Position numbers and translations under genes: made by a program. Below, piece by piece: positions 14,848 to 18,850 of a DNA stretch of 64,000 bases (the stretch's first letter is position 1; each line of letters begins with the position of its first letter). The stretch spans positions 1 through 64,000 of the forward strand of contig CAWGRK010000014.1 in the NCBI GenBank assembly GCA_963824995.1, read 5' to 3'. Under the pieces are notes generated by a model that made no database searches, had not been told where the DNA came from, and worked only from the letters and a program-made list of their open reading frames with translations. The stretch comes from an uncultured Actinomycetes bacterium. GTDB lineage: Bacteria > Actinomycetota > Acidimicrobiia > Spongiisociales > DATADW01.

Positions 14848-14946
14848 TCAAGGGCGCATGTTGTCCAGCCCGGCCAGGGCCGGGGCGGCCGACGCCAACA
14901 GGGCGAAGACCGTCGTGACGAAAATGGCTATCCGACGGCGGGTCAT
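14848..14946 (-). CDS. Small secreted pre-peptide, 32 aa: MTRRRIAIFVTTVFALLASAAPALA|GLDNMRP
   Basis: Not in ORF track (too short). GGAGGT RBS 4 nt before ATG; 27 of 31 non-start codons end in G/C; basic n-region, hydrophobic h-region, P-A-L-A signal peptidase I site. Confidence 0.75.
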   Translation of the reverse strand: MTRRRIAIFVTTVFALLASAAPALAGLDNMRP

Positions 14947-14963
14947 CCACACCTCCTATATGC

Positions 14964-15001
14964 AATATGGTCGCCCAGGGGTGTCTCTCAGGTGTCTTTC
15001 C
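14964..15001 (-). promoter_or_regulatory. Direct-repeat activator site plus candidate -10 for the peptide gene
   Basis: AGACACC-N4-AGACACC (14997-14991, 14986-14980; 11-bp period), then CATATT 10 nt downstream (14969-14964). Confidence 0.55.
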
Positions 15002-15029
15002 TCTGAGACGACATGGGCCGACCTTCGGC

Positions 15030-18000
15030 TCAGCCGGTACGAGTGCCCCTGGTGCGCACCGGAAAGCCCTCGGTCCGCAGCATCTGAAGATCACGCTTCA
15101 CTGTCGCCGGGCTGACCGCGAGGGCGGCGGCGAGGTGGTCGATCGTGGGCAGTCCGCCCTGCTCCTCGGCCTGACCCAGCAGCCGGAGGAGCCGGGTGCG
15201 GCGCCGTGAACCGTCGCCACCCACCACCTCGTCTGGGGCGGTCTCCAACGTCCAGGTGATCTCGACAAGATCGGCCTCGGTCAGCGTCCTACCGACGGGT
15301 ACATCGTGTCGCGGCATGGCGAATGCCACCCGGCGGGGTGCGGTCTCTTCCCAGGCGTCGACGATGGCCCGGTGCTCGGGTACCGCGATGAGTGCTCTCT
15401 CCAGTTGAGCCGAGTCGAGGCCCTCGAGCACCTCCATCAGGCCGCGGTAGGCCTCGTCGATCAAACCGCGGCGACGTTCGTCGGGCCGGGCCATCGCCAT
15501 CACCGACGCATGGGCGTACGGGACGAGATACCCCTGCTCGACGCTGGGGCTGAGTCCCTGCATCGCCGCCGACGTCGCTTCCAATGCAGAATCCAAATCT
15601 CCCATGGCGGCGAGTGCCTTTCCACGTACTGCCATCAAACCCACCTCGACGTCCCGAAGGCCCAGCTGACGGCGAGGTGTTCTCGGCTTCCTCGATTCTC
15701 TCCAGGGCCGAACTGGTAGTCACCAACGTCGAGGTCGAGCAACGCAAGGCCCGCAGTAGCTGGACCTCGAGCCAGCGGCGTCCGCTCACCTCCGCCTTCT
15801 GCATCCCCGACTCGAGCAGCCTCCGAGCCCGTACGAGCTTGCCTCGGCGACGGGCGATGCCGCCCAATGACCTCGAGACACTGCGCCTGACCACGCTCGT
15901 CACCGATCTCCTCGAAGAAGACCAGGGCGGCGCCGGCCCAGTCGGCGGCTCGGTCATCGTCGCCGAGCAGTTGGTGGTACACCGAGGCTGCGTTTGCCCG
16001 GACCATCGCCTCGCCGCGCGCATTGCCGATGGCGCGGAAGACATCGAGCGCCTGCTCGTAACTTGCCACCGCCTCCCCTGTGCGCCCAGAGACGTAGTGA
16101 TGGTTGGCGAGGTTCACCAGGTTGACGCCCTCGCCGTACCGATAACCCATCTCCTGGCAGAGCGAGAGCGCATGTCGGTAGGACCGTTCCGCCGCCGAGG
16201 CGTCGCCACGTTCCATGTGGATCGAGGCGAGCACTCCGAGTGTTTCCGCTTGACCGCGCTGATCGTTGGCCTCGATACACAGGTGGAGGGCGACCTCGAG
16301 CTGATCGACGGCTTCGTCGTACTCCCCGTAGCTGAGTGCGGTTCCCAGCGCCAGGCGTGCTTCAGGTTCCTTGCTCGCATTGCCCGTGTACACCTCGAGG
16401 GCCGCTCGGAGGTGGGGGATGGCCTGGCGCACCTTGCCCGACCAGCTGAGCACTGCGCCGAGCGCGGCGAGGGCGCCACCCTCGGCCTCGGTGCCGGTGC
16501 CAGCGAGCTCCAGAGAGCGTCTGGCCGCCTGCTCTGCTTCGGTGAACCGGTCCGTGCTGGCGAGGAGCCAGGCGCGCCGCCGCTCCACCTCGCCCAACCG
16601 ATCGGACTGGTCCCCGGCCAGCACCGCCATGTCGGCGAGCACCGCGTCCTGCTCGTGACGACGGCCCAGCACGCCGAGGGTGGCCTCGTAGGCGCCGAAC
16701 AGCTCGAACCGCTGTTCGCCTGGAAGACCGGCGCTCTCGGCCAAACCCACGGCGGCGGCATAGTGACGGGCCGCGGTCTCGTACCCGAACAACCTCTCGG
16801 CTCGTCGTGCCGCCTCCCACGTCGCCGCGGCCGCCTTGTCGCTCACACCGCCCTCGGAGTAGTGATGAGCCAGTTCCTCACATCGATCGGGGTACTGCTG
16901 CTCGAGCACCTCGGCCACCCTGACGTGGAGAGAACGACGCCACTCCTCAGGTATCTCGCCGTAGACCACCCGCCGGACCGCGTCGTGGTGGAAGTCGTAA
17001 CCGTCGTGACCTCCGACGAGCAGGCCACCGCGCTCGGCCTCGTCTACCGCGGCCAGAAGGGCGGGATCGCGAGCCATCGGTGACTGCGAGCAGCGCCTGA
17101 AGGTCCACTTCGGTGGAATGGACGGCGACAGTCTCCAGCACGGATCGAACCTCTCCTCCGAGAGCGGCAATCCGGTCGGCAACGAGGTGGTAGATGCTGG
17201 CCGGAAGCGGGAGTTGGGATGTCTCCAACTCGGCGAGCGAGTGCCCCTCCTCGTGGAGGGCGCGAAGAGTCTCCAAGACGAATAGGGGAGTTCCGCTCGT
17301 CTCACGGTGGAGCCGGGTGACAAAACGGTTGGGTACCCGAGCAGTACCGAATCCGCGTCCTACCAGTTCGGCGGTGTCGAAAACCGACAGCGGTCCTAGC
17401 AATACCCGTCCTCGCCCCGCCTTGCGGTCGAGCTCGCGGATGGCGTCCCATACATCGGGACGTTGCCTCGCCTCGTCGTGCCGGTAGGTCACGCACAACA
17501 GCACCTGGCTCGTCGAGACACGGTCGGCGAGCAGAGTCAGGGCTCGCAGGGTGTCCTTGTCGGCCCATTGCAAGTCGTCGATGACGACGATGTGAGGAGC
17601 CAGGCGGCCGATGGCGAGCACCAGTTGGACCAGAGCCTCCTGCTTCCGCTCCTGTGCCTCTTTGCCCCACAGCGAGCCCGAGGGTGGCAGTGTCGATACC
17701 CAGCGTTCGAGCGACGGGATGAGCTCGGCGGATTCACGCAGCCAGACGCCATCGACCTGCTGGGCGAGCTGTTCGGTGCGGAGGACAGTGAGCCCTCCAG
17801 CGAGCGCGGCTGTGAGCGACTCGTACGGTCGGAGGGCGCCCAGTTGGTTGCAGGCGCCCCACAGCACGTCGAAGCCCCGCCATCGGGCGTCCTCGGTGAT
17901 CTCGCGGACGAGGCGCGTCTTGCCGATGCCGGCCTCGCCTTCGACAAGGACCACACCGCCGCGTGACGCCAGAGCACCCTCGAGGGCGTCTACGAGGATG

Positions 18001-18850
18001 GCGCGTTCCTCGGACCTCCCTACGAACGGCGCCTCGCCTCCCGGCTGGAACAGGGGGGGAGGTGGCTCGGACTCGAGGGGGCGGAGTCCGATCTGGCGGT
18101 AGCGGGCGATCTTGTCGTTGAGCGCGGTGGTGTCGGGGGAGGGCTCGGTACCGAGTTCCTCGGCCAGGACCGAGGCACAACGTTGGTATTGGGCCATTGC
18201 CTCGTTCACCCTGCCGAGCAGGAAACAGAGCCTCATCACTTCCTGGTGGGATGCCTCCCGCAGCGGATCGTGGTGGGTCAGCCGGCGGGCGTAGGTGAGT
18301 GCCTCTTCGTGGTTTCCATGAGCCTTCTCGAGTGAAACGAGTTGTTCGAGCGCGTTGAGGAAGAGTTGCTGATAACGGTCCTGTTCGAGGATCGACCCAC
18401 TCCTCGTAGAACCCAGGCAAGGAGATCACCGCGGTACAACTCAACGCAGTGACGAAGCCGCTCCAGGTCGGCCGCCGGAGCCCGCGCCGGGTCGGGTCTG
18501 CCGACCTCTTCGAGAGTTCGCTCGAACTCCTCCACATCGAGCCAATAGGGGGCACGGGGGGTGAAGGCGAGATCATCCGGTGTCACCGTCAAGAACCGCT
18601 GCGGGTCGCACACCTCCGACAAGGCGTCCTGCACCTGCCACAGCGTGTGGCTCAGCCGTCGCCGGGCTCGCCCTTCGGACAGTTCGGGCCAGAACATCCC
18701 GCCCAGGTAGTCCCGCATCTGGGGTCGGTTGCGGTTGATCACCAGATAGGCGAGCAGTGACCTGCCCAGCCGGGACGGAATCGGCGGGACCGGATGGTCG
18801 CCCCACTCGAGGAGGAACCCACCCAGCAGGTGGATCCGCAGCTCATCCAT
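15030..18850 (-). CDS. Large transcriptional regulator: SARP wHTH-BTAD + AAA ATPase + TPR array + C-terminal DUF1670-like HTH (about 1270 aa), several indels
   Basis: LRIHLLGGF, LLAYL, FWPELSEGRARRRL, LYRGDLL, ELGTEPSP (BTAD); FVGRSEE, GEAGIGKT, IDDLQWAD; TPR helices; QGGLPTIDHLAAALAVSPATVKRDL...VRTRG. Confidence 0.88.

Follow-up and report, generated by a model that had tools for sequence, protein, structure and literature searches.

The locus examined here raises the question whether a large regulatory protein of an actinobacterium and the very small gene directly behind it together make up a peptide-signalling system. It lies in a stretch of 64,000 nucleotides (nt) from an uncultured Actinomycetes bacterium of the class Acidimicrobiia (GenBank assembly GCA_963824995.1, contig CAWGRK010000014.1, positions 1 to 64,000), which is called the window below. 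A reading of the letters alone, referred to here as the original prediction, had placed an unannotated 32-codon gene for a secreted heptapeptide after a regulator with SARP, STAND-type ATPase and TPR domains, and had suggested that the exported peptide might return to the TPR domain of that regulator. We find that the regulator and a secreted-type pre-peptide gene of 30-32 codons are a conserved two-gene module in one SARP/STAND clade. That this module constitutes a full autoinducing loop, in which a hexa- or heptapeptide acts on a STAND receptor, is put forward tentatively; it is a quite possible reading, with doubt having the slight upper hand. The two genes and their parts are the following:

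18850 to 15030, minus strand: large SARP/STAND regulator, frameshifted in this assembly.
14957-14951, minus strand: ribosome-binding site (RBS) AGGAGGT, 5 nt ahead of the ATG.
14946 to 14848, minus strand: pre-peptide gene, 32 codons plus TGA (ATG 14946-14944, TGA 14850-14848).
14946-14872, minus strand: predicted signal peptide, codons 1-25 of the pre-peptide gene.
14871-14851, minus strand: tail GLDNMRP, codons 26-32, followed by the stop at 14850-14848.

The small open reading frame (ORF), whose translated product is MTRRRIAIFVTTVFALLASAAPALAGLDNMRP, begins 83 nt after the stop codon of the regulator (TGA, 15032-15030) on the same strand. Its GC content by codon position is 0.62/0.56/0.88, and G or C ends 28 of the 32 codons, or 27 of 31 when the ATG is left out; the corresponding values of the regulator are 0.73-0.77/0.45-0.50/0.77-0.81. 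Beyond the stop of the small ORF the two shifted frames are closed after 14 and 4 codons, and the in-frame read-through extends over 70 codons with a GC content of 0.61/0.74/0.74, unlike the coding pattern. The original prediction had named these same properties, namely the position and sequence of the ORF with its strong RBS, a genome-like GC content at third positions (27/31), shifted frames closing within 15 codons and a read-through lacking third-position bias, and all of them were recovered on recounting. Read by hand, the signal consists of an n-region M-RR, an h-region of about 19 uncharged residues and then P-A-x-A, and the invariant RR of the n-region would also be compatible with Tat export. 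The exact 32-mer is present in the ESM Atlas, where its best feature scores (0.80-0.84) fall inside the chance range stated for the tool.

Whether such an ORF is a gene can be judged from its relatives. A scan of a genome collection with an alignment of the C-terminal domain of the regulator (alignment A2, 6 sequences) yielded 15 loci, L001-L015. Five of them (L001, L004, L007, L002 and L003), which are labelled as Acidimicrobiia or "Actinomycetes" metagenome-assembled genomes, are collinear with the window over the ORF and 1.1-1.2 kb around it, with a DNA identity of 81-93% in the regulator. The RBS, the ATG and the TGA occupy identical positions in all five. The six ORFs of this close group differ at 15 sites, distributed 6/1/8 over the three codon positions (P of about 0.02 for at most one second-position site among 15 under neutrality, calculated by hand); nine of the codon changes do not alter the residue, and the substitutions that do are V/L, L/M, L/I, A/S and P/L. 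The tail of L003 is GLDNMRP as in the window, and that of L002 is GIDNMRL. Because start and stop are kept and substitutions are biased among these close relatives, we conclude from the alignment that the ORF is under purifying selection in this frame and that its stop is genuine.

The pairing extends to much more distant regulators. In L013, L014 and L015 the C-terminal domains of the regulators are 37-45% identical to that of the window, and a pre-peptide ORF again follows. Taking the loci other than the window together, this ORF has an RBS, lies on the same strand and begins 80-133 nt past the regulator. The distant pre-peptides are:

L015 (labelled Acidimicrobiia): MRRRLAVIAITVMSALAMAAPALA followed by the tail SVKNMS.
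L013 (5.4-kb contig in a bin labelled Gammaproteobacteria): MRRVVTFALAFATAMALFAQSAFA, ending SAFA, followed by the tail AVVNIR.
L014 (Acidimicrobiia): MRRIITVATTAAVFLALLVQGASA, ending GASA, followed by the tail DVYFLR, with a GTG start 7 nt after AGGAGG.

All three share one design, M-RR, about 20 hydrophobic residues, P-A-x-A and 6-7 further residues, and AGGAGG or GGAGG stands 5-8 nt ahead of their start codons. The regulator of L013 groups with the Acidimicrobiia/Egicoccus clade despite the label of its bin, which may reflect a binning error or a transfer outside Actinomycetota. The expectation of the original prediction that homologous regulators carry a downstream pre-peptide was borne out within this clade, in nine of nine loci (the window, five close and three distant relatives), and failed in the seven Chloroflexota loci. 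Since these seven homologues have no pre-peptide, the pairing is, as far as the compared loci indicate, a property of one clade and not of the whole regulator family. In four of the Chloroflexota loci the regulator is followed by an ORF of 75-118 amino acids (aa) with the motif [FV][IV][IL]RIWWEE...WRGWVQH:

L005, 6579-6806, plus strand: IRIWWEE-type ORF.
L006, 6802-7101, plus strand: IRIWWEE-type ORF.
L010, 4855-5211, plus strand: IRIWWEE-type ORF.
L012, 6724-7011, plus strand: IRIWWEE-type ORF.

Pfam holds no family for those of L005, L006 and L012, the three that were scanned, and regulators of this family may have this ORF as their partner instead of the pre-peptide.

The association is specific within the DNA surveyed, 434,386 bases comprising both strands of the window and the 15 loci. 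A filter for a signal peptide with a short tail, written before the family had been seen, passed 7 of 3397 small start/ORF combinations, every one of them the window ORF or a counterpart of it. A looser pattern fitted to the family passed 9 of 2247, all directly after a regulator and none elsewhere, and these nine are the window and eight clade loci. In a quick tree of 37 regulators the four peptide-bearing rows stand on one side of a branch with an SH-aLRT value of 99; the frameshifted regulators (window, L001, L002, L004, L007), five partial proteins shorter than 1100 aa and P0001, which is identical to L006, were left out of it. The pair has no conserved third gene, as its neighbours differ between L003, L013, L014 and the window, and the other neighbours of the distant pairs are unrelated housekeeping genes. 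About 1 kb downstream of the pair, L003 carries a MalT-like regulator with TPRs and a LuxR/GerE HTH (5760-7931, minus strand, 724 aa to the contig end), and the corresponding position of the window is occupied by rhamnose-related genes.

Pre-peptides of this kind were also found in protein databases. When 1,835,955,588 representative proteins were searched with a profile built from six pre-peptides (E<=0.001), 14 matches resulted, of which 12 are 30-32 aa long and aligned end to end. The two longer ones are the L014 ORF, annotated with an earlier ATG as its start (62 aa), and a protein of 59 aa whose tail is extended; the latter, P0042, has a normal signal peptide and SVSDM followed by 30 more residues and could be a read-through variant or result from a lost stop or a sequencing error. 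The newly found tails are SIKNMG, SVSNMS, SVVNMHG, SISDMS, SGSQMS, SVSMMS, NGDFHR, AVLNMR, GVVNMG, SVVNIR and SVVNIH. In the family alignment of 17 sequences (A6), the listed length is 30-32 aa for 15 members, and reading from the RBS-supported start brings the remaining two into this range. M1, the RR pair, A-3 and A-1 are invariant (17/17) and P-4 is kept in 15. The tail begins with S, G or A in 15 of the 17 and continues with V, I or L at +2 in 15, a variable +3, N at +4 in 12 and M, I or L at +5 in 16, so that its consensus is [S/G/A]-[V/I/L]-x-N-[M/I/L]-[R/S/G/H] over 6-7 residues. Neither Pfam nor NCBIfam came near a cut-off for the 10 pre-peptides scanned. Most named members of the clade are Acidimicrobiia and Nitriliruptoria.

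The predicted receptor is a composite protein. In order, it contains an OmpR-type winged HTH with a BTAD domain, an AAA_16 NTPase, about 13 TPR-like repeats and a C-terminal HTH, which Pfam describes as DeoR/HTH_11-like and DUF1670-like; both features of large SARPs, the N-terminal SARP part (OmpR-type plus BTAD) and a NOD/AAA domain followed by TPRs, are present. The BTAD-AAA-TPR-HTH order had been proposed by the original prediction, and Pfam supports it on the pieces of the window as well as on the intact regulators of L003 (1271 aa), L013 (1274 aa) and L014 (1270 aa). In the window, positions 18850-15030 are not one ORF; they are collinear with homologues of 1250-1310 aa over four successive frames (tblastn with P0001, P0002 and P0027), with four frame changes near 18400, 17080, 15865 and 15700. 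Of the four pieces, the second matches BTAD and AAA_16, the third the TPRs and the last the HTH. The E values obtained for the regulators are 3.8e-29 (BTAD) and 8e-25 (AAA_16); the translation contains the Walker A motif GEAGIGKT, and the TPR models matched by the regulators are TPR_12, TPR_2, TPR_1 and TPR_MalT.

A six-way DNA alignment places 7 single-base indels in the window regulator relative to its relatives, 3 of them common to L001. The window and its four MFD-named relatives each have scattered 1-nt indels of their own, and the ORF is intact in L003, which, to judge by its contig and isolate names (k141, SMAG), is probably a short-read assembly. Because the gene is intact there, the frameshifts are most likely errors of a long-read consensus and not gene decay. 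Other genes of the window are split as well, namely an aromatic amino-acid lyase in three pieces (19550-21219) and a DUF885 gene in two (28135-28716 and 29059-29559), and the nitroreductase at 18896-19423 matches only the C-terminal part of its family. Since single-base indels are this abundant, ORF calls in the window need a relative as a check.

The closest matches of the regulator among PDB sequences are AfsR (8k60/8jke, E 3.9e-13, residues 127-324) and EmbR (2fez, residues 8-253), and its TPRs resemble those of LGN/Pins in the same search. With 91 bits against a cut-off of 1430 for the NCBIfam AfsR equivalog NF053617, it does not, by this sequence measure, qualify as an orthologue of AfsR. 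The L015 regulator fragment, modelled with AlphaFold (996 aa, pLDDT 91.2, pTM 0.73), has the NTPase, helix pairs from about 378 to 892 that form a long TPR solenoid, a small beta element and the terminal HTH. Its best folds in the PDB are the STAND-TPR protein 6mfv (E 8.5e-14) and Avs3 with phage terminase, 8dgc (8.8e-12); further fold matches are the TPR domains of LGN/Pins and APPBP2, solved with partner proteins or a degron. RRNPP receptors are not among the fold or sequence matches listed for the regulator. The family comprises at least 403 clusters at E<=1e-50 among 8000 candidates scored, and its named sources are Acidimicrobiia, Nitriliruptorales, Egicoccus strains (AB-alg2, AB-alg6-2), Anaerolineae and Caldilineae.

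If the regulator controls the small gene, its promoter might be expected between the two. Three elements were noted in this interval:

15017 to 15029, minus strand: small hairpin GCCGAAGGTCGGC, read from the sequence, directly after the regulator stop.
14998-14981, minus strand: tandem heptamers AAGACAC-N4-GAGACAC with an 11-bp period, candidate SARP box.
14967 to 14972, minus strand: -10-like hexamer GACCAT (xANNNT), 8 bp past the second heptamer, assigned by eye.

The hairpin stretch GCCGGAGGTCGG is conserved in L002 and L003. The heptamers of the window differ at one position from GAGACAS-N4-GAGACAS. A single exact copy of this motif stands ahead of the ORF in each of three loci, L002, L003 and L015, and the remaining 12 loci have no exact copy; over the loci, about 306 kb in total, some 0.005 matches would be expected by chance, as calculated by hand for both strands and equal base frequencies. 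Hexamers were likewise assigned by eye in L003 (GACTAT) and L015 (CATAGT), again 8 bp from the second heptamer. A scan for the sigma-70 consensus detected no -35/-10 promoter upstream of the ORF, as expected since an activator-dependent promoter is proposed. According to the available text of a study of AfsR, SARP targets are direct repeats 11 or 22 bp apart whose 3' repeat lies 8 bp from a weak -10, as in the afs box before afsS (PMC10936776). This layout is matched in the window clade and in L015, and the presence of a SARP-type repeat in its promoter suggests that the ORF is tied to the regulator. A GTCTC half-site, the reverse complement of GAGAC, is found at 15005-15009 (minus strand) and also in the intergenic regions of L003, L002 and L015; in the window clade it precedes the heptamers and in L015 it follows them, which hints at a small hairpin or at a third binding site in inverted orientation.

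The circuit that we propose would run as follows. The peptide gene would be transcribed from a promoter of its own that depends on an activator, in which two GAGACAS heptamers are spaced by one turn of the helix and a weak -10 follows at 8 bp. The neighbouring regulator would probably switch this promoter on through its SARP domain, in the way AfsR acts on afsS. Export of the pre-peptide and its cleavage by a type I signal peptidase after A-x-A are predicted, and this cleavage would free the hexa- or heptapeptide (GLDNMRP here) with no further processing. The peptide might then build up outside the cell, be re-imported and dock in the sensor arm of the STAND ATPase, on the concave side of its TPR solenoid. 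This might lead to nucleotide-dependent activation and in this way to more transcription of the peptide gene, which would be autoinduction, as well as of other targets.

Several observations weigh against this loop. Among regulators of only 37-47% shared identity the tails vary rather little (SVxNM...), and known pheromone families usually diversify more than this; such uniformity would also be in keeping with a peptide that acts on something else than its cognate receptor. No oligopeptide permease is found in the annotated part of the window, where the ABC system encoded at 2729-7611 belongs to the sugar/branched-chain type. Of the independent lineages, only the window clade and L015 have the exact SARP box, with a single GAGACA in L014 and no repeat in L013; in the window by itself the motif at up to 2 mismatches has 2 matches against 2.59 expected, and the -10 element rests on assignment by eye. 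The 12 new peptide matches come without genomic context. Finally, AfsR constructs without the TPR domain still bind DNA and activate transcription in vitro, as the accessible part of the report states (PMC10936776), so control of large SARPs by a TPR ligand is not established.

Active AfsR without its TPRs and the uniform tails, together with a box layout that mirrors the afs box before afsS, would equally suit a module of the AfsR-afsS type that has an output only, in which the regulator activates the small gene and the peptide acts elsewhere, on another receptor, on other cells or on the envelope. We consider this unlikely, though deserving of serious weight, because the strict co-occurrence in nine of nine loci amid unrelated neighbours is the pattern of a receptor and its propeptide, and because a STAND ATPase equipped with a TPR sensor arm must have a ligand of some kind.

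A further element, which the original prediction did not mention, is a structured non-coding block after the ORF:

14549 to 14847, minus strand: conserved non-coding 3' block of about 300 nt, three hairpin domains followed by a hairpin and a T5 run.
14558-14549, minus strand: GTTTTTCGCG, the end of the block, carrying the terminal T5 run at about 14553.

In an alignment of six genomes (A3) the block contains invariant runs of 58, 24 and 17 columns, and the longest invariant run in the 3.9-kb regulator alignment is 20 columns. Between these runs it has about 13-15 indel runs, mostly of 1-2 nt, substitutions spread 22/25/27 over the three phases and a non-coding GC content by position. As its overall identity between the window and L003 is no higher than that of the regulator (79% against 81%), the conservation is patchy and not uniform. 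The block was not found by blastn after the ORFs of L013, L014 and L015 and is, judging by the loci compared, a lineage-specific addition. We consider it a candidate structured 3' untranslated region or regulatory RNA on the same transcript. A repeat or mobile element was rejected, the block being single-copy in the window and present only in the five close loci. Searches for tRNA and tmRNA found none in it, and Rfam gave no match at E<=1 in 14300-15200 and none at the gathering score in the whole window. The sole terminator-like match of a terminator scan is on the plus strand, within a window-specific insertion of about 15 nt (14719-14734) in a variable linker of the block; this insertion is a perfect small hairpin, AGCCGAGACCTCGGCT, and L002 carries an insertion of its own there, about 25 nt long. 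After the pre-peptide gene of L015 (3189-3400, plus strand) there is a perfect inverted repeat, about 23 bp long and interrupted by a spacer of some 60 nt, whose sequence is unrelated to the block of the window.

The invariant hairpins of this block might themselves be the effector, with the small ORF being secondary; the RNAIII/hld transcript of staphylococci would be the model for such a dual-function RNA. The 58-column run, the three stable hairpin domains with a T-run terminator on the ORF strand, and G-U pairs in the invariant helices, which like the T-run favour that strand, are in line with this idea. We nevertheless hold it to be improbable. In the RNAalifold consensus (-106.8 kcal/mol, 85 pairs) only 3 pairs have a compensatory change among 6 sequences from two sub-lineages, the z-score of the fold is a modest -2.26 on the ORF strand (3 of 100 shuffles were as good) against -4.09 on the opposite strand, and Rfam is silent. 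Moreover, a regulatory RNA cannot explain the family-wide pairing, because distant loci that keep the ORF do not have the block. Combined with the proposed circuit, the block would make the locus the first peptide-pheromone circuit of Actinomycetota, in which a SARP-headed STAND ATPase senses, with its TPR arm, a self-made hexa- or heptapeptide freed by signal peptidase alone. In the window lineage the pheromone would be encoded on a dual-function RNA of about 415 nt, the invariant 3' hairpins of which would serve as a second output at the RNA level. The agr RNAIII/hld transcript would be its analogue. This combined claim we rate as rather improbable.

Little probability is also given to an uncleaved small membrane protein, possibly akin to a type I toxin, whose hydrophobic stretch would be a transmembrane helix and whose translation would be controlled by a structured mRNA. 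A product of 30-32 aa with one hydrophobic helix and the long conserved structured untranslated region on its transcript would agree with this, and so would the fact that a chain of 30 aa is complete before leaving the ribosome, so that its export would be post-translational. However, the invariant A-3 and A-1 with the prevalent P-4 form a classic signal-peptidase I site, and the hydrophobic core is free to vary while the tail keeps its motif. The structured block is confined to the window clade, and neither an antisense RNA gene nor a partner was seen, the antisense search being a scan for consensus promoters only.

It is barely conceivable that the ORF is an artefact, the N-terminal remnant of an exported protein whose longer reading frame was broken by a mutation or by an indel of the assembly: although the assembly is indel-rich, with the regulator, the aromatic lyase and the DUF885 gene all split, this candidate was rejected since the stop has the same position in all six assemblies of the close group, 12 of the 14 database matches are 30-32 aa long, and the sequence downstream has indel runs, no codon periodicity and non-coding GC. 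The original prediction, which had doubted a broken longer gene and left the TGA at 14848-14850 to polishing, is upheld in this respect, the same TGA being found in L003.

A comparison with known systems places the pair beside, and not within, the described families. In the RRNPP(A) pairs of Bacillota and phages (Rap-Phr, NprR-NprX, PlcR-PapR, AimR-AimP) a cytoplasmic TPR protein likewise adjoins a small pre-peptide gene; the pre-peptide of these pairs is of the Sec type, and the signal is its C-terminal 5-10 residues, compared with a tail of 6-7 here. The RRNPP_detector paper, in the portion accessible to us, gives a five-point signature for these pairs, namely a propeptide of 21-50 aa, a Sec/SPI signal, a receptor of 250-500 aa, TPRs and adjacency, with intergenic distances of -50 to 191 bp in the reference pairs (PMC10075063). 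The propeptide of 32 aa, the TPR receptor, the adjacency and the gap of 83 nt agree with it. The receptor does not, since the intact regulators have 1270-1274 aa, and at about 1271 aa it combines SARP, STAND ATPase, TPR and HTH domains. The pair also lies outside Bacillota, and its tail starts at the predicted signal-peptidase site, so that, unlike in RRNPP systems, no pro-region or extracellular protease would be needed. Because the receptor differs in size and belongs to another protein class, the pair would, on these sequence features, work like an RRNPP pair and is not a member of that family. RRNPP_detector could not have found it, since the tool was, by the same partial account, applied to Firmicutes and viruses only and filters receptors by length (PMC10075063).

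AfsR-AfsS of Streptomyces is similar in its SARP, NOD/AAA and TPR domains and in the small neighbour gene preceded by two direct repeats one helical turn apart with a poor -10. It differs in that the regulator studied here has an additional C-terminal DUF1670/DeoR-like HTH, that the repeat is GAGACAS, and that the small gene encodes a secreted-type pre-peptide of 30-32 aa, unlike AfsS, which is a cytoplasmic protein of about 63 aa. Streptococci have the Rgg-SHP and ComR-ComS systems, in which the gene next to that of the receptor specifies a precursor of 17-35 aa, the signal is formed by the C-terminal 7-9 residues, and the receptor activates the promoter of the precursor itself, which results in autoinduction. 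The very short precursor beside the receptor and the autoinduction proposed here recall these systems, in which the receptors are, unlike the regulator of about 1271 aa, HTH-TPR proteins of about 300 aa. Their precursors are described in the available text as having no Sec/SPI site, with PptAB as exporter and Eep as protease (PMC10075063). STAND sensors with TPR arms, such as MalT, Avs3 and the 6mfv protein, likewise have an NTPase followed by a ligand-recognising TPR-like solenoid. They have no SARP DNA-binding head, and their ligands are sugars, as for MalT, or phage proteins, not a self-made exported peptide. Literature searches on RRNPP systems, on SARP, STAND and TPR proteins and on propeptides in Actinobacteria or Acidimicrobiia returned, in the portions of the articles retrieved, no description of such a pair, and the three papers that contain any of six tail strings deal with unrelated matters.

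Peptide quorum sensing with a cytoplasmic TPR receptor is contrasted, in the accessible part of the RRNPP_detector paper, with the small-molecule signals typical of Actinomycetota (PMC10075063). Such sensing is treated as a trait of Bacillota, and the pair described here is a strong candidate for a peptide signal outside Firmicutes. The circuit is directly testable with a synthetic peptide of 6-7 residues and a defined promoter box, and the Egicoccus strains AB-alg2 and AB-alg6-2, perhaps cultured isolates, might be used as hosts if they carry the pair. If the proposed circuit is true, it would represent the simplest maturation route yet, with the signal-peptidase cut as the only processing step, and it would provide a natural class of ligands for the sensor arm of large SARPs, whose input is obscure even for AfsR. 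It would also extend peptide signalling to another phylum, in largely uncultured bacteria living in soil and water.

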